From a virus (lineage: Duplodnaviria; Heunggongvirae; Uroviricota; Caudoviricetes), in IMG/VR virus record IMGVR_UViG_648276644_000012, positions 1 to 41,039 of that record: DNA of 41,039 bases, one strand, 5' to 3'. The number at the start of each line of letters is the position of its first letter. Position 1 is the stretch's first letter. The position numbers were made by a program, and so were the translations under genes. The notes beneath the pieces are model-generated. The model searched no databases and had not been told where the DNA came from. It saw only the letters and a list, made by a program, of their open reading frames with translations. Below, in pieces: positions 1-6,227 of this stretch.

Positions 1-1158
1 ATGCTCACCGTTAAGCAGATTGAAGCAGCAAAGCCGAAAGAAAAACCATACCGCCTACTCGATGGTAATGGCCTGTACCTTTATGTCCCTGTGTCAGGGA
101 AAAAGGTATGGCAGCTTCGCTACAAGATTGACGGTAAGGAGAAAATCCTGACCGTCGGAAAATATCCGCTTATGACTTTGCAAGAGGCAAGGGATAAAGC
201 ATGGACTGCGAGGAAAGACATCTCGGTTGGCATCGATCCGGTAAAGGCGAAAAAGGCTTCGTCTAACAACAATTCCTTTAGCGCCATTTACAAGGAATGG
301 TACGAGCACAAGAAGCAAGTCTGGTCAGTAGGCTATGCAAATGAACTTGCAAAAATGTTTGATGACGACATTTTACCCATCATCGGCGGTCTTGAAATTC
401 AGGATATTGAGCCGATGCAACTACTGGAAGTAATCCGCAGATTTGAAGATCGCGGTGCAATGGAGCGAGCAAATAAAGCCCGCAGAAGATGCGGCGAGGT
501 TTTCCGTTACGCTATTGTCACTGGTAGGGCTAAATATAACCCGGCACCTGACCTTGCTGACGCCATGAAGGGATACCGCAAGAAGAACTTCCCGTTTCTT
601 CCTGCAGACCAGATCCCTGCATTCAACAAAGCACTGGCAACATTTTCAGGGAGCATCGTATCGCTCATTGCGACTAAAGTTTTGCGCTACACAGCCCTAA
701 GAACGAAAGAGCTTCGCTCCATGCTATGGAAGAACGTCGATTTTGAAAACAGGATTATCACCATCGACGCCAGTGTGATGAAGGGTCGAAAAATTCATGT
801 GGTTCCTATGTCAGACCAGGTGATTGAACTTCTCACTACGCTAAGCTCAATCACTAAACCAGTGTCAGAGTTTGTTTTTGCCGGGCGCAACGATAAGAAG
901 AAGCCAATTTGCGAGAACGCTGTACTGCTTGTGATCAAACAAATCGGCTATGAAGGTCTGGAAAGCGGTCACGGATTCAGGCATGAATTCAGCACGATTA
1001 TGAACGAGCACGAATGGCCTGCTGACGCTATTGAAGTGCAACTGGCACATGCCAACGGCGGATCTGTGCGCGGGATTTACAACCACGCTCAGTATCTCGA
1101 TAAGCGCAGAGAAATGATGCAGTGGTGGGCGGATTGGCTTGATGAAAAGGTGAAGTGA
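1..1158 (+). CDS. intS: Tyrosine integrase, P4 family (IntS-like, 385 aa)
   Basis: N-terminal arm-binding type sequence MLTVKQIEAAKPKEKPYRLLDGNGLYLYVP; C-terminal catalytic motifs HGFRHEF and Y in IYNHAQYLDKRR; length equals E. coli KpLE1 IntS; symbol assigned from context and recollection. Confidence 0.85.
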   Translation: MLTVKQIEAAKPKEKPYRLLDGNGLYLYVPVSGKKVWQLRYKIDGKEKILTVGKYPLMTLQEARDKAWTARKDISVGIDPVKAKKASSNNNSFSAIYKEWYEHKKQVWSVGYANELAKMFDDDILPIIGGLEIQDIEPMQLLEVIRRFEDRGAMERANKARRRCGEVFRYAIVTGRAKYNPAPDLADAMKGYRKKNFPFLPADQIPAFNKALATFSGSIVSLIATKVLRYTALRTKELRSMLWKNVDFENRIITIDASVMKGRKIHVVPMSDQVIELLTTLSSITKPVSEFVFAGRNDKKKPICENAVLLVIKQIGYEGLESGHGFRHEFSTIMNEHEWPADAIEVQLAHANGGSVRGIYNHAQYLDKRREMMQWWADWLDEKVK

Positions 1159-1190
1159 TCAGCCTCAACCACAATCGAATAGCGCAAAGC

Positions 1191-1219
1191 CTTGCAATCC
1201 AGTGCAAGACTTTGTTTTT
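1191..1219 (+). terminator. Rho-independent terminator after int
   Basis: Hairpin CTTGCA-N6-TGCAAG followed by ACTTTGTTTTT. Confidence 0.5.
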
Positions 1220-1535
1220 CTAAGTTTTTCTCACATCACCGCACAATAATCAAACTAACCATAACACTCTTCGTTGATAATGACCTGACGGATATCATCA
1301 TGTACGTGACTGAGATTGGAGCAATAAGGCTCTTGTCGATTGACACACTATCTTCAACTAGTTCTGCTGCTGGAGATAGAAGCCCATAGTGCACTTACGA
1401 TAAAATACTGTGCGAGAACACAATATAATCATAGTAAAAATCAGATCAACTTCAAAACACGCTGCTTATCCATTGATCAACAGAATCATGCTGTTAAAAT
1501 TAATCCTATTACTACACTTAACTTAGGTATCTTTA

Positions 1536-2576
1536 ATGTCTATAAGAAATGGAAATCGTCTAGAATTCCTAGACTCTTTGCGTGGACTTGCAGCCCTGAT
1601 GGTTGCATGTGCACATTTCATAGAGCGAACACCATTGCATAACAGTTTTTTATTTAAGCATGTTAACTTTGGTCAGGTTGGTGTTGTTTGCTTCTTTGTG
1701 TTAAGTGGCATGGTAATACCTTACAGCCTAAAGGAAGGGAAAAGAGCGATATCCGGGTTCATTATATCAAGGTTTTTTAGACTATATCCCGCTTACTGGT
1801 TTTCAGTATTTCTGGCGGCCTTTACTTTTTTGTTTGTAACTCATAGACCACTTGATATAAGAACTCTGTTGTCTAATATTACCATGCTTCAATCTTTACT
1901 GAGATCTCCAGATATGTTTGGTGTTTATTGGACGCTAATAATTGAGTTGTTCTTCTATGCTTCCTGTGCGTTTCTTTTCAAAGTAAATTTATTAAAGAGT
2001 AAGGTTTCTTTATTTTTAATTTCTATAGGACTTATTGCAACCGCTCTTGCTTTCTCATACGTGAGATTCGTTCTTGATAAAAAAGTTCCTGTGGCAATAC
2101 CGCTAGCTATGTCATTAATGTTCTTTGGTAGCTTATGGCGTTCAGTGAGCATTGGGATTGCATCGAGATCAGAAAGAAATATGTGCATTGTATTTTTAAT
2201 AACATTCCTAGTGGCGATTGCTCCGATTTGCTTAATGTCCTACAATAAAGACTATGGGCATGGGGAAAATGCTTCCTCCTATATTGCTAGCTATCTTACA
2301 GGCATAGTATTGACGCTATTGCTCACTACACGGGTAAAATTGAATGTAGGATTATTGGTTTTCCTGGGATCGATAAGTTACTCTGTATACTTGATTCACC
2401 CATTCTTTTTAGAGATTGTATCTGTCAGTATAGACATGGACACAGATTTTAATTTTATTATTTTTGTTTTATACCTATTAGCTACGATCGCACTAGCAAC
2501 TATTTCTTATAAGGTAATTGAAAAACCATCTATAAATATAGGTCACAGGCTTAGGAAGATCGCACTAGCAAGCTGA
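1536..2576 (+). CDS. Acyltransferase family 3 (AT3) membrane protein, O-antigen acetyltransferase (Oac-like)
   Basis: N-terminal LEFLDSLRGLAALMVACAHF motif typical of AT3; multiple hydrophobic TM segments over 346 aa; AT-rich gene at integrase-proximal moron position as in Sf6 oac. Confidence 0.75.
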   Translation: MSIRNGNRLEFLDSLRGLAALMVACAHFIERTPLHNSFLFKHVNFGQVGVVCFFVLSGMVIPYSLKEGKRAISGFIISRFFRLYPAYWFSVFLAAFTFLFVTHRPLDIRTLLSNITMLQSLLRSPDMFGVYWTLIIELFFYASCAFLFKVNLLKSKVSLFLISIGLIATALAFSYVRFVLDKKVPVAIPLAMSLMFFGSLWRSVSIGIASRSERNMCIVFLITFLVAIAPICLMSYNKDYGHGENASSYIASYLTGIVLTLLLTTRVKLNVGLLVFLGSISYSVYLIHPFFLEIVSVSIDMDTDFNFIIFVLYLLATIALATISYKVIEKPSINIGHRLRKIALAS

Positions 2577-2590
2577 CATATGACATGAAT

Positions 2591-2618
2591 CCCCAGCTTA
2601 GTTCTGGGGATATTTTCT
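2591..2618 (+). terminator. Rho-independent terminator after AT3 gene
   Basis: Hairpin CCCCAG-N7-CTGGGG followed by T-rich ATATTTTCT. Confidence 0.5.
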
Positions 2619-2741
2619 GGTTATATAATACAATCCGAACTTACACCGAGAGCAAAAATCAATTATATAAGCATACTGTATCATTCATATTACTTTTACG
2701 CTAGGCTCAAGTATCCAATGATCAATAACAGACAAAAAATA

Positions 2742-2757
2742 CTGTATGTGTATACAG
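2742..2757. promoter_or_regulatory. Candidate LexA (SOS) box CTGT-N8-ACAG
   Basis: taCTGTATGTGTATACAGag is a close match to the E. coli LexA consensus TACTGTATATATATACAGTA; sits ~150 bp upstream of the next ORF. Confidence 0.4.
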
Positions 2758-2905
2758 AGTCAGTGATATTTTTTCTGCTGCTCAATGATCATTTCCGATC
2801 TTCCCACTTCTAAATTTATCCTCATGATGTTATTATCATTAAATTTATTTTAGGGGTAGTCACATGAGATATATTGCATTGTTTTTCTTTGCTCTTTCAC
2901 TGTAG

Positions 2906-3184
2906 ATGAATTGGACAATAAAAATGATAAAGTATAGAGCTGGTATAGATGGTTTAAGAGCAGTCGCTGTTGTGATGTTTCACGCTTTCCCAAGCGCATT
3001 TTCTGGAGAGTTCAATGGGTTTGATTTATTTTTCATAATATCTAGCCTTTTAATTTCAAGTATTATTTTTAAAAATTTAAATAGCGGTAAATTTTCTTTT
3101 TCCGATTTTTACTTAAGAAGGATTAAGCGGATTTTTACACTCTTACTCAGATCATATATAAGATTAGATTGCAAGTCTAGTTAG
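2906..3184 (+). pseudogene. Truncated N-terminal fragment of an OafA-type AT3 acyltransferase
   Basis: 92-aa ORF with AGIDGLRAVAVVMFHAF...GFDLFFIIS...FKNLNSGKFSFSDFYLRRIKRI matching only the first ~2 TM helices of AT3 proteins, then stop; an SGNH ORF with TM anchor follows 85 bp later. Confidence 0.5.
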
Positions 3185-3268
3185 TGGTTGGCTGAATAAT
3201 TTTCTCAATTCGTTGATTTGAAGCGTAAATATATTTTTAACCTTAAACCTTATTAAAAGGAAAATGCA

Positions 3269-3964
3269 ATGAAGTCAAAACAAACAAATAGAAAGTCTCA
3301 AGCAAATAAATATTTGGCAATGCTGTTTATTCTGATTGCAATAGTTATTATAGTATTGTCTGTTCGTTCAATTAGAAATTATTTATCTCAAAAAAAAGTT
3401 AACGACTTTCAGGCTGTGATGCTAGATTTTAAAAAAATGAATGCTAATCAAGCTGACGGCGACATTGTGGTTTATGGCGACTCGCTCATACAAGGAATGT
3501 CACCATATGGGTTAAACTTTAAATATGTTAATATGGGGGTCGGAGGATACTCTATACATCAGATCCTAACTCTATCAGAAAATTATGGGGCGTCTGGATA
3601 TAAAGCTGCGATAATTGAAGGTGGAGTTAACGATGCGATGGGTGCGAAAACCGAAGAGGAAATATTTGATGATTATGACAAACTGCTTAAGAGTGTATCA
3701 AAGGTTGATAATATTTATGCATTAAAAGTTTTGCCAATCATAAGCGGGGCAAGAAAAGACGTAGACCATGTCAATTCAAGAATAAGCATGATTAACTCTA
3801 TTATTGATAGAACATGTAGTCGCATAGTTAACTGCAATATAATAGAAGTTCCTGCAGATTTTTTATCTGATAAAAAATCTGAATTGTACTTTGATGATGG
3901 AGTGCATTTAAATAAAAATGGCTATGCCGTTTGGATGAGAGAGATTAATAAACATGTGAAGTAA
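3269..3964 (+). CDS. Membrane-anchored SGNH/GDSL hydrolase (esterase/acetyltransferase partner domain)
   Basis: N-terminal TM helix LAMLFILIAIVIIVLSV; SGNH blocks VVYGDSLIQG (block I), GGVNDA (block III), DDGVHLNKNGY (block V); own SD AAGGA before ATG. Confidence 0.75.
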   Translation: MKSKQTNRKSQANKYLAMLFILIAIVIIVLSVRSIRNYLSQKKVNDFQAVMLDFKKMNANQADGDIVVYGDSLIQGMSPYGLNFKYVNMGVGGYSIHQILTLSENYGASGYKAAIIEGGVNDAMGAKTEEEIFDDYDKLLKSVSKVDNIYALKVLPIISGARKDVDHVNSRISMINSIIDRTCSRIVNCNIIEVPADFLSDKKSELYFDDGVHLNKNGYAVWMREINKHVK

Positions 3965-3969
3965 AAGAT

Positions 3970-3989
3970 GGCCGCATTGCGGCCTTTTT
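3970..3989. terminator. Bidirectional terminator between convergent SGNH and tailspike genes
   Basis: GGCCGC-ATT-GCGGCC hairpin followed by TTTTT. Confidence 0.55.
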
Positions 3990-6227
3990 CTACCAGGAAG
4001 CATCAATGTAAAATATTGGTGAGGCTGTAGTAGATCCATTAATTGTTATCGACCCGGTTGATGCGCTTATTGTTGCCATCGCCATACCGTAAGATATTCC
4101 ATCAGCAGTGAACGGTACAGGGACATTTTTTGTTACTGTTGGTCTACACCACCTTGGCAGCGTTAGAACAGTATTACCATTCGCAAATGAAGTGGCTGCC
4201 AGTTTAATATTAATTGAATTGGCAGTTAAACTTGACGGTGCCTGTACTGTTACGTTTGTTCCAGCCCACCATTGAACAGCTGCTCTTGGCGTGTAATCAA
4301 CACGCGACCACCAGTCGATAATGGCAGAGCAGATAATTTCCGCATACAGACGATACCCTAACTGGCTTTGGTGAATGTCATCACGCAGAAGTGGGTCGTA
4401 TTGCGTATTGAAATACTCTGGATATGGGGCCGGGAGCTGGTGAGTTGTTGTTACACAAATGACGTTATTGCCATATTTCATCATCTGGCGTTTACCAGCT
4501 TCTCGCAACTCTGCGACACCGTCGTAGTTAGAAGATGGCTGGCCAGCCCCTCCAATAAATGACTGGCTATACCACATCCACGGCTCAACCCAAACAGGGA
4601 TACGACCAAGGCCATTGCAATATAAGACAAACTCATCTATCAATGACGCCATATAATCGCCGTTTTGGTTTGCCTGCCCTTCGTTAGTTCCGGCAACCAT
4701 AATAACGATGTAAGCATCACCCGGCCCCTGAGCCTTCAGGAGATCTAACTGTTGCCTCATTGTCTGTCCGGCAACTGCCTTGTTTACAATGCTATGTGAA
4801 CGGTGGCCGTTCGCTCCATCCATTAATTGCGGAATGTACGAGCTGAACGCGGAAATGAAATCCTCAGCTGTACTATCACCGTGGATAAGGATATTAAGTG
4901 GAGGCTTACCGTGCACGCCATTATCAGAGGTGTAGCTGCATAATCCAGTTACACGCGCAGAACCTCCAGATGCCGTGGTCAGTGCAACAAACCCAACTTC
5001 GTATACATCCCCTACATCAGCAGTATCAAAGGGCAAACGTATCCCAACGCCATTCATCGTTATCTGCGCCCAGTTTTTACCTTGCAGTGATACGCCAACG
5101 GTTGCTTTGCCCGGGGCGTACGACAGTAAACCTCCTGGCAGCGGGAATGGAGTTCCTTCTGCTACTGGACCACCAATTGGTTTCTGTCTATAAGACCACT
5201 GTGTAGCACCTGGTGCCCCATAGAACATCATCCAACCACCAGAGCATCGCAGAACAATCCCAACTTCTGAGGCGGCCTGAGATTCCATACGAATATGTGC
5301 AGAAATATGCTCTCCAATATCTATTGGTGCGAACAGGCCTGTTGTACGGTTAGTAGTTAAGGGGAAGATAGCTGCGCTATCTGAGGATATGGTGACTTCA
5401 CCTTCATAGAAGAACGTGTCACCATTTATGGAATAAACTTTACAATCTGACCATTCCACTCGCTTCATGCGAATAGGGTTTCGGTTGAGGATAGCCTGCT
5501 TAGCCAGGTAATCCACTTCCCCACCGGTTGCTTTAAAGTTCAGGTGCGTAAATTCAAACGTACCCTCCCCCTCGTACTGCAACGATTTAAACAGTGAGTA
5601 CAGATCACTGTCGAATCTCAGGGTGACATTTTTATCAATGATTACTTTACTGTTCGCAAGGAAAGAAGCGTTAGCAGCTGTAGACGGTACGGTGTACACC
5701 ATCTGATTTTTTGAATGATTAGAGAAGTAAACATACCCGTAGGTCGCAACACTATCGCGCCATGCCTGGACTACGTTAGAATTAACATAGCTTGGGATTT
5801 TTGTGATCGAATGCAAAACAAGGTCTTCCTGTGAGATAGCTCCATTTACCAGATTAACACCGCCTTGAGATGCAAGATCTTGCCTGAGTTGGTCAGGGTC
5901 ATACTTCAACACATTCGGAAAATAGAACTGCTGCGAACCATACGCATCATAAACAGCCATAGAATGCCCTTGCACAGTTACGAACTTGGCAATTTGTCCG
6001 TTATATACCGGATATCCAGCAGCGTTAATGATGATTGGTTGCGAAACAGGAACGTGAGAACCGTCTTCGTTCTCCACATAAACCTGAATCTGGTTTTCAG
6101 GATTTACCGGGTCAGTGTCAATTTTACCGATATAAATTTTTCCATTGGCAACCGCTTTAAAAGAACGCGCCATAGTGAAGAGTTGCGAAGGCATCGATAC
6201 GATCACATTGGCTGTAATGTCTGTCAT
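3990..6227 (-). CDS. gp9: Tailspike: P22 gp9-type N-terminal head-binding domain plus divergent receptor-binding region containing an SGNH esterase domain
   Basis: First ~115 aa [11 protein letters not shown]...NVLKYDPDQ match P22 tailspike N-terminus as recalled; aa ~443-640 carry SGNH blocks [30 protein letters not shown]. Confidence 0.85.

Follow-up and report, generated by a model that had tools for sequence, protein, structure and literature searches.

The window analysed here, a stretch of 41,039 nucleotides (nt) from a tailed-phage genome (IMG/VR virus record IMGVR_UViG_648276644_000012, positions 1 to 41,039), begins with the integrase gene intS (1-1158) and carries, between this gene and a convergent tailspike gene, an island of genes predicted to handle acetyl groups. 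In RefSeq genomes the same DNA lies directly after the tRNA-Arg gene argW, downstream of fadL-yfdF-mlaA-yfdC, and the prophage is of the P22/Sf6-like type. Two genes of the island are intact, one for an AT3-only acyltransferase (AT3-346) and one for a membrane-anchored SGNH protein (GDSL-231), and three others, a UmuD-like gene, a second SGNH gene and an OafA-like AT3-SGNH gene for 660 residues, have been cut down to stumps. The features are the following, where T1 denotes the receptor-binding part of the tailspike and designations such as L025 denote related loci used for comparison.

1290-1385, minus strand: stub of an S24/UmuD-like peptidase gene, residues 2-33 of 129 (tblastn with the S24 protein of L025, 56% identity, E 1.7e-9).
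1536-2576, plus strand: AT3-346, an intact AT3-only gene for 346 residues, putative membrane acetyl-donor component (Pfam, PHROG and motifs).
2589-2611, plus strand: terminator-like hairpin at the 3' end of the AT3-346 cassette (terminator scan; homology to L021 stops at 2611).
2773-2905, plus strand: upstream region and first 13 codons (2864-2905, MRYIALFFFALSL*, the asterisk marking a stop) of a type-2 SGNH/GDSL gene, 76% identical in nucleotides to E. coli XJ55.
2906-3184, plus strand: open reading frame (ORF) of 92 codons, in which 2924-3135 is the 5' stump (codons 1 to about 75) of the 660-residue OafA-like AT3-SGNH gene.
About 3138-3221, plus strand: 3' stump of the same 660-residue gene, about its last 28 codons, in a frame that differs from that of the 5' stump and with two internal stops.
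3269-3964, plus strand: GDSL-231, an intact gene for a predicted membrane-anchored periplasmic SGNH protein of 231 residues, putative acetyl-transfer or esterase component (PF13472, motifs and AlphaFold2 model).
3970-3984, no strand assigned: GC-rich hairpin that serves the convergent SGNH and tailspike genes as a terminator in both directions (terminator scan of both strands).
3990-6227, minus strand: tailspike gene, with a P22/Sf6-type head-binding domain (residues 1-113; PF09008, E 7e-67) and the receptor-binding part T1.

An initial annotation had placed three ORFs in the island, and all of them are found at 1536-2576, 2906-3184 and 3269-3964. Its description of the island as AT-rich is likewise in agreement with a GC content of 0.27-0.40 over about 1200-3900, as compared with 0.42-0.52 in the flanks, and its reference to the corresponding slot of E. 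coli K-12 is correct, as CPS-53 (there called KpLE1) has intS followed by the gtr-type genes yfdG/yfdH/yfdI. The integrase gene and the head-binding part of the tailspike gene share about 95% DNA identity with Sf6, CUS-3, Kapi1 and others, and the stretch between the two differs from phage to phage; this variable content supports the exchange of cassettes that had been proposed for the slot. With an argW-type integrase on one side, a convergent tailspike on the other and a content that varies among relatives, the locus has the properties of a serotype-conversion slot. The complete island occurs in 3 of 5426 complete E. coli genomes (PigCaeca_1, LR-06 and Z1322HEC0003) at 99.9-100% identity, so that the copies are nearly identical among carriers, and in these genomes PGAP calls the AT3 and SGNH genes and leaves the 92-codon ORF unannotated. 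It should also be mentioned that a gene beyond the tailspike of PigCaeca_1 (L001 12424-13548) is annotated as an internal fragment of a lytic transglycosylase/DNA-transfer protein, and that this prophage copy may be defective.

The 92-codon ORF matches the Pfam AT3 model over profile positions 2-81 only, with 20.8 bits and thus below the threshold of 31, and the PHROG family 'O-antigen acetylase' over positions 4-80 of 647 (E 3e-23), and its product is 74% identical to residues 1-78 of an intact protein of 660 residues. This protein combines the Pfam AT3 domain (PF01757, residues 7-331) with PF19040, 'SGNH fused to AT3' (residues 412-649), and a search of PDB sequences with it gave no match. 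Its gene is found intact in L003-L008, where it is followed by a separate intact GDSL gene for 228 residues, 76% identical to the SGNH gene of the window, and then by the convergent tailspike gene. Window positions 2916-3135 correspond to L003 693-922, the first approximately 220 nt of the 660-residue gene, at 83% nucleotide identity, and positions 3130-5864 correspond to L003 2593-5329, comprising the last approximately 90 nt of that gene and everything downstream, at 78% over 2.7 kb. Missing from the window are thus about 1,670 nt, codons ~75-630, which encoded most of the AT3 domain, the 11th helix and nearly all of the gene's own SGNH domain. The two sides of the deletion meet within a short imperfect repeat (AGAATTTTC / AGATATTTG), and the tail of the 92-codon ORF is an out-of-frame read-through over this junction (~3130-3143). 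The 3' stump reads SYSDHI*D*IASLVSGWLNNFLNSLI*, its counterpart in L003 being SYSDHIPDYYATIVGDGLNKFLNSLD*, and is separated from the GDSL start codon by a spacer of 47 nt as compared with 46 nt in the intact arrangement of L003. Furthermore, the 5' stump has decayed, a 9-nt deletion having converted R-X10-H to R-X7-H, while GGFIGVD has become GEFNGFD and FFIISG has become FFIISS. We conclude from these comparisons that the 92-codon ORF is to be regarded as a non-functional pseudogene stump of a separate 660-residue gene.

The notion that this ORF resembles only the N-terminus of OafA-type proteins is accordingly sound, but the ORF is not half of a fusion with the SGNH ORF. The initial annotation had taken the two for the ends of a single OafA-like gene that has lost its central helices, or alternatively for a working, naturally split two-component acetyltransferase, and the gene order, an AT3 N-terminus followed by an SGNH domain with a transmembrane (TM) helix, does mimic the domain order of OafA. 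However, the 3' end of the parental gene lies out of frame between the two ORFs and upstream of the SGNH gene, and the SGNH ORF was therefore never its C-terminus. The comparison with related prophages, which had been set beforehand as the refuting test, furthermore reveals the parents of the two ORFs as separate genes in L003-L008. An OafA/OafB-type polypeptide made of these two ORFs is likewise in poor agreement with their SGNH types, since the SGNH protein of the window matches PF13472/PF00657 only and the intact 660-residue relative has PF19040, and with the state of the stump, where the R/K-X10-H and GG-F/Y-xGV-D motifs are broken in addition to the other damaging changes. We consequently give the decayed fusion and the working split enzyme built on the stump next to no credence. 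For the 92-codon ORF the idea of a two-component acetyltransferase fails, but in spirit it probably holds for the SGNH gene; members of its family occur, as described below, either as proteins separate from AT3-only proteins or as fusions with them. The SGNH gene is, as judged by these alignments, a separate gene that once stood downstream of the 660-residue gene and that travels with the receptor-binding domain of the tailspike. Genome annotation should treat the 92-codon ORF as a pseudogene remnant that is not part of the SGNH gene.

Two further genes have left scars in the island. At the S24 stub, window positions 1280-1411 are homologous to L025 7741-7871; in sister prophages the S24/UmuD-like gene follows intS, and the remainder of it beyond the stub is deleted in the window. 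The similarity to XJ55 in positions 2773-2902 covers the upstream region and the start of a GDSL gene for 227 residues, whose type-2 SGNH protein is only 25-29% identical to the SGNH protein of the window. The type-2 stub ends in a stop directly before the OafA-like stump, and its region may now serve as promoter for the downstream SGNH unit. Since L021 has a relative of AT3-346 followed by a type-2 SGNH gene, the AT3-346 cassette probably arrived with a type-2 SGNH neighbour of its own, which was later truncated. The presence of stumps of the second SGNH gene and of the UmuD-like gene identifies the island as a recombination patchwork in the intS-tailspike serotype-conversion slot of a P22/Sf6-like argW prophage of E. 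coli O88, and we hold this structural and evolutionary account, with its patchwork, its stumps and its separate SGNH gene, to be very nearly certain.

AT3-346 had been proposed to be an intact AT3 acyltransferase, and this is confirmed by a full-length match to Pfam Acyl_transf_3 (PF01757; profile positions 2-325 of 326, E 2e-30), the score of 106 bits being well above the curated cut-off of 31 for membership in the family, and by the motifs R16-X10-H27, R79xxR82 (R79FFR82) and FFVLSG (FFxxSG), which are all kept. R/K-X10-H in transmembrane helix (TMH) 1 and RXXR are reported to be essential or conserved in the AT3 family (PMC7448272). The protein furthermore matches phrog_3333 'O-acetyltransferase' (E 5e-56), and the ten TM helices proposed for it are putative, with the full-length Pfam match behind them and about 8-10 hydrophobic segments in a crude hydropathy scan. 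Its family is a large one of stand-alone AT3 proteins of 340-390 residues, and dN/dS values of 0.06-0.10 against relatives at 81-89% identity are indicative of strong purifying selection. In other prophages relatives of AT3-346 adjoin tail or tailspike genes, and the cassette is shared with L021/L022/L023 from ~1280/1447 to 2611/2649. The relative in L021 is 89% identical and has the distant type-2 SGNH gene downstream; that AT3-346 always comes with an SGNH neighbour is ruled out by L022 and L023. L021 itself is a metagenomic contig in which positions 690-6048 hold the AT3-346 relative, the type-2 SGNH gene, a convergent AT3-SGNH gene for 639 residues and a GDSL gene for 378 residues, and this cluster adjoins an integrase fragment.

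GDSL-231 had been described as an SGNH ORF with its own TM anchor, in good agreement with its match to Lipase_GDSL_2 (PF13472, E 9e-14) and its one N-terminal hydrophobic segment. In an alignment of 26 family members GDS (S72), G92/G93, N121, D210-x-x-H213, C183 and C189 are invariant, so that SGNH blocks I, II, III and V (Ser, Gly, Asn and Asp-x-x-His) are all present, and a helix that links the N-terminal hydrophobic segment to the catalytic domain is conserved in the family (FQxxMLxFKxxNxxQADGD). At the N-terminus, five positive charges precede the single strongly hydrophobic segment, which suggests a topology with the N-terminus inside, the C-terminus outside and a periplasmic catalytic domain. 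The AlphaFold model, a confident one (pLDDT 88), has an N-terminal helix followed by the SGNH alpha/beta fold, and Foldseek relates it with probability 1.0 and target-normalised TM-scores of 0.7-0.8 to SGNH acetyl-esterases and to the C-terminal domain of OatA, the nearest solved folds being sialate O-acetylesterases, platelet-activating factor (PAF) acetylhydrolases and the catalytic domain of the peptidoglycan O-acetyltransferase OatA. Between GDSL-231 and its L003 copy dN/dS is 0.15. All 28 close homologues are stand-alone proteins of 139-245 residues, 26 of them of 212-245 residues, and the SGNH protein is found on 126 contigs. A profile search of 1.84 billion cluster representatives returned 11 at E<=1e-30, the complete ones being of about 210-250 residues except for one truncated fusion; a scan of species-representative genomes with the SGNH alignment gave no confirmed relative, and NCBIfam gave no informative name. 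Both AT3-346 and GDSL-231 are provided with ribosome-binding sites and terminators.

The gene of this SGNH family is nearly always convergent on a tailspike gene, 11-35 nt away, and is found in four recurring arrangements. It may stand alone between the integrase or an S24 peptidase and the tailspike (L009, L018, L019 and L033-L037, from E. coli, Enterobacter and others), it may follow an OafA-like AT3-SGNH gene (L003-L008 and L020), it may form a two-gene pair in which it begins 11 nt after an AT3-only gene for 377 residues (L024), or it may be fused. The fusion is a protein of 595 residues whose AT3 domain is 61% identical to the AT3 of L024, whose C-terminal part is 72% identical to GDSL-231 and in which the SGNH anchor helix is placed as the 11th helix. 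It occurs in the same argW slot of P22-like prophages of E. coli (L025-L028, and the 3 complete genomes SRY149, SRY157 and SRY206), and its cluster has 77 member sequences. The AlphaFold model of the fusion, likewise confident (pLDDT 87.6), has the expected order of a helical bundle, a long helix at 373-425 and an SGNH fold; a Foldseek search against the PDB matched the SGNH part only and does not inform on how the domains dock. The fused AT3 is of the AT3-only type, as it has a long loop between TMH1 and TMH2 and is without the GG-F/Y-xGV-D motif that marks the AT3 domains of classical AT3-SGNH fusions (PMC7448272). Other pairs of an AT3-only gene and an SGNH gene are found in L021 and XJ55, and in the window AT3-346 lies 690 nt upstream of the SGNH gene. 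The existence of both split and fused forms of the same two families is a classical signature of functional partnership, and this is how we read it for the AT3 and SGNH families of the slot. In an Aeromonas veronii prophage (L031/L032) a family member, 40% identical, is found among early or regulatory genes beside a LuxR-type regulator, and the linkage of the family to tailspikes is therefore not universal.

The tailspike itself has SGNH esterase motifs in T1 (GDS450 and DDIH616) and a weak match to PF13472 (Lipase_GDSL_2) at residues 450-627, some T1 homologues are named SGNH/GDSL hydrolase by PGAP, and comparison with solved tailspikes gave no sequence match beyond the head-binding domain. 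The T1 tailspike of the window is 87-91% identical in amino acids to T1 tailspikes on other phage backbones, and T1 is found on at least four prophage backbones, namely P22-like at argW, P22-like next to bio/ybhB, a TipJ-type siphovirus and a prophage near yfgI with a tail protein of 800 residues (L044-L046, L041-L043 and L038). The island carrier Z1322HEC0003 has O88-family wzx/wzy. The O88 wzy gene is present at >=99% identity in 25 of the 5426 complete genomes, and all 12 T1 genomes found by megablast are among these 25, as is XJ55, whose tailspike is 81% identical in protein, so that 13 of 13 T1 genomes are O88. Since T1 is found only in genomes with O88 wzy, it looks like an O88-specific receptor-binding domain, esterase-type by motif, and the O88 antigen is the most likely target of the acetyl-handling genes linked to it. 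In the O88 cluster of Z1322HEC0003 (L040 17386-19763), two cytoplasmic-type acetyltransferase genes are found next to rfbB, with an ISEc1 insertion between them and galF. Native O-acetyl groups on O88 would have a bearing on the roles of the tailspike and the island.

An AT3/SGNH module accompanies T1 in 7 of the 13 genomes, in three architectures, the window type, the fusion type and the XJ55 type, and is absent from the other 6 (PEC301, GPEC1240, A30, NADC1036, 602687 and HN257). The module is thus optional, and the proposal that T1 always comes with it is ruled out by these 6 genomes. Two other candidate rules were rejected as well: a specific relationship between the SGNH gene and the tailspike's own SGNH domain has an hhalign probability of only 4%, and the SGNH gene does not always accompany esterase-type tailspikes, as the T2 tailspikes of L009, L018 and L019 are without SGNH motifs. 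In NADC1036 the T1 tail gene is found on the chromosome and also on a separate replicon of 38.7 kb (NZ_CP076267.1, 38,709 bp), so that the prophage may also exist there in an excised or plasmid-like form.

The six T1 prophages without any conversion genes lend some support to the view that the island is genetic debris, a scarred recombination junction in which two full-length ORFs have simply not yet degraded and contribute nothing to the lysogen. The three gene stumps within 2 kb, the rarity of the island and its near invariance among carriers are also in agreement with this view. It is however made rather improbable by the facts that both ORFs retain all catalytic motifs, ribosome-binding sites and terminators, that the spacer between the oaf remnant and the GDSL gene is preserved, that the deletions stop precisely outside the two intact genes, and that the SGNH protein is so widespread among contigs.

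The explanation that we favour as a whole, and consider somewhat better than evenly placed, is that of a patchwork island which encodes a two-part periplasmic O-acetyltransferase; taken alone, the step by which AT3-346 and the SGNH protein together make up such an enzyme falls a little short of an even chance. The data show the integrity of the two genes, their conserved motifs, their genetic linkage, the fused and split forms and the association with serogroup O88; how the proteins sit in the membrane, the passing of acetyl from one to the other, the sugar that receives it, the effect on the lysogen and the compatibility of the re-assorted pair are inferred. AT3-346 would pass acetyl from cytoplasmic acetyl-CoA across the inner membrane, and GDSL-231, anchored by one TM helix with its positively charged N-terminus in the cytoplasm and its catalytic domain in the periplasm, would take it up on Ser72 and place it on the O88 O-antigen. 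The two would thereby constitute a two-gene equivalent of OafA/OatA, working in the manner of PatA/PatB, and the changed O-antigen would alter the binding of O-antigen-specific phages to the lysogen. Their pairing would be a re-assorted one, in which AT3-346 has lost its type-2 SGNH neighbour and the SGNH gene has lost its OafA-like neighbour.

Several observations speak against such an enzyme. AT3-346 and the SGNH protein do not co-occur obligately, as SGNH-alone and AT3-alone loci are both common; SGNH loci with no AT3 nearby are frequent (the stand-alone arrangement above), the AT3-346 relatives in L022 and L023 have no SGNH gene, and in L003-L008 the gene just upstream of the SGNH gene encodes an OafA-like protein with an SGNH domain of its own. 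AT3-346 is furthermore only 26-28% identical to the AT3 proteins that are fused to or paired with this SGNH family, and as the pair of the window would have arisen by re-assortment its members may not be compatible. In addition, the hairpin at 2589-2611 sits between the two genes, the near-identity of the island copies means that intactness could merely reflect recency, the structural neighbours of GDSL-231 include true acetyl-esterases besides OatA, and transferase and esterase activity of an SGNH protein are indistinguishable from its sequence.

The chief alternative is that of two independent accessory genes, where AT3-346 alone is an Oac-like O-acetyltransferase and the anchored SGNH protein, likewise alone, acts as a periplasmic O-acetyl esterase on the O-antigen or some other envelope glycan and so takes away the substrate of the phage's own esterase-type tailspike. 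The many SGNH genes that converge directly on tailspikes without any AT3, the occurrence of AT3-346 relatives without an SGNH gene and the sialate O-acetylesterases and PAF acetylhydrolases among the closest solved folds would all fit, several of the linked tailspikes do have SGNH esterase domains, and native O88 O-acetyl groups are plausible because the O88 cluster encodes two cytoplasmic-type acetyltransferases. For this clade, however, the alternative is opposed by the sister prophages, where the same slot has a 72%-identical SGNH domain fused behind an AT3 in the arrangement of OafA/OatA; there would be no precedent for such a fusion between an acetyl translocase and an esterase, and the split pair of L024 is only 11 nt apart; the SGNH-alone loci beside T2 tailspikes without SGNH motifs likewise weaken the logic of the esterase-type tailspike. 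We thus find independent genes unlikely, although less so than debris.

A two-part O-acetyltransferase would bear on a question left by previous work. The SGNH domain is required for transfer in OafA/OafB, the AT3-only protein WecH can feed the SGNH protein PatB, and it has been stated as an open question whether a partner for AT3-only enzymes may exist, undiscovered (PMC7448272, PMC9558356, PMC9833829). The demonstration that the periplasmic SGNH domain of OafA/OafB does the final transfer thus left a conundrum in AT3-only enzymes such as the Oac of Shigella, which work without an SGNH partner that is fused or linked to them. In the prophage slot a single SGNH family occurs naturally in a set of forms: by itself, as neighbour of an AT3-only gene, joined to that AT3 in one protein, and as neighbour of a full OafA-like gene. 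Since all of these go with the same O-antigen type (O88) and the same tailspike specificity, the partner question becomes testable. We tentatively propose, as a generalisation that may well turn out to be wrong, that anchored SGNH proteins beside tailspikes are the genetically linked partner of AT3-only O-antigen acetyltransferases, that acceptor specificity resides in them, that they are co-inherited with the receptor-binding domain of a tailspike directed at the same O-antigen (O88 in the window), and that they are served by interchangeable AT3 proteins, either phage-encoded, fused or possibly the host WecH when there is no phage AT3. If this is true and the tailspike is indeed of the esterase type, prophage and virion would form a write/erase pair acting on the same sugar, and if the SGNH protein should instead be a deacetylase it would represent a new kind of lysogenic conversion. 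Kapi1, a P22-like coliphage at argW, changes the O-antigen of its host, and when candidate genes were over-expressed one at a time, among them an acyltransferase-like gene located between tailspike and int, the change was not obtained (bioRxiv 10.1101/2021.04.09.439263). A requirement for two or more components would fit this outcome, which is however no evidence for it.

Among known systems, the Oac of Shigella phage Sf6 is the closest in setting, as it comes from the same type of phage with an argW integrase and occupies the same slot between int and tailspike, with 95% nucleotide identity in int and in the N-terminal part of the tailspike, and AT3-346 is likewise an AT3-only protein with R-X10-H, RXXR and FFxxSG. 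It differs in that AT3-346 has no close relative among the AT3 proteins of the phage collection, the best match being to Erwinia phage 59 at 35% identity, and in that Oac has been described without a fused or linked SGNH partner (PMC7448272), whereas the window has a linked SGNH gene. The OafA/OafB proteins of Salmonella (AT3-TMH11-SGNH) are resembled by the deleted 660-residue gene, which had PF01757 and PF19040, and by the 595-residue fusion of the sister prophages with its AT3, 11th helix and periplasmic SGNH domain. In the window, however, the OafA-like gene is destroyed, and the surviving SGNH protein belongs to another family (PF13472, with a PAF acetylhydrolase/OatA-like fold) and is separately encoded; elsewhere the AT3 fused to this SGNH is of the AT3-only type without GG-F/Y-xGV-D. 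PatA/PatB, together with the cross-talk between WecH and PatB, provides a parallel to the putative pair of the window in its membrane acyl translocase with a separately encoded periplasmic SGNH transferase and in an AT3-only protein able to feed an SGNH protein, but PatA is an MBOAT protein and not an AT3, PatB is soluble and not TM-anchored, and the target is peptidoglycan. Gp63.1 of coliphage G7C is an esterase-type tailspike. Pectobacterium phage PP99 likewise has an esterase-type tailspike (PMC6989608), and the tailspike of epsilon15 has an esterase domain (bioRxiv 10.64898/2026.07.31.742079). The tailspike of the window resembles these by the GDS...DxxH SGNH motifs in its receptor-binding part, and differs from them in being linked to genes for acetyl-handling conversion.

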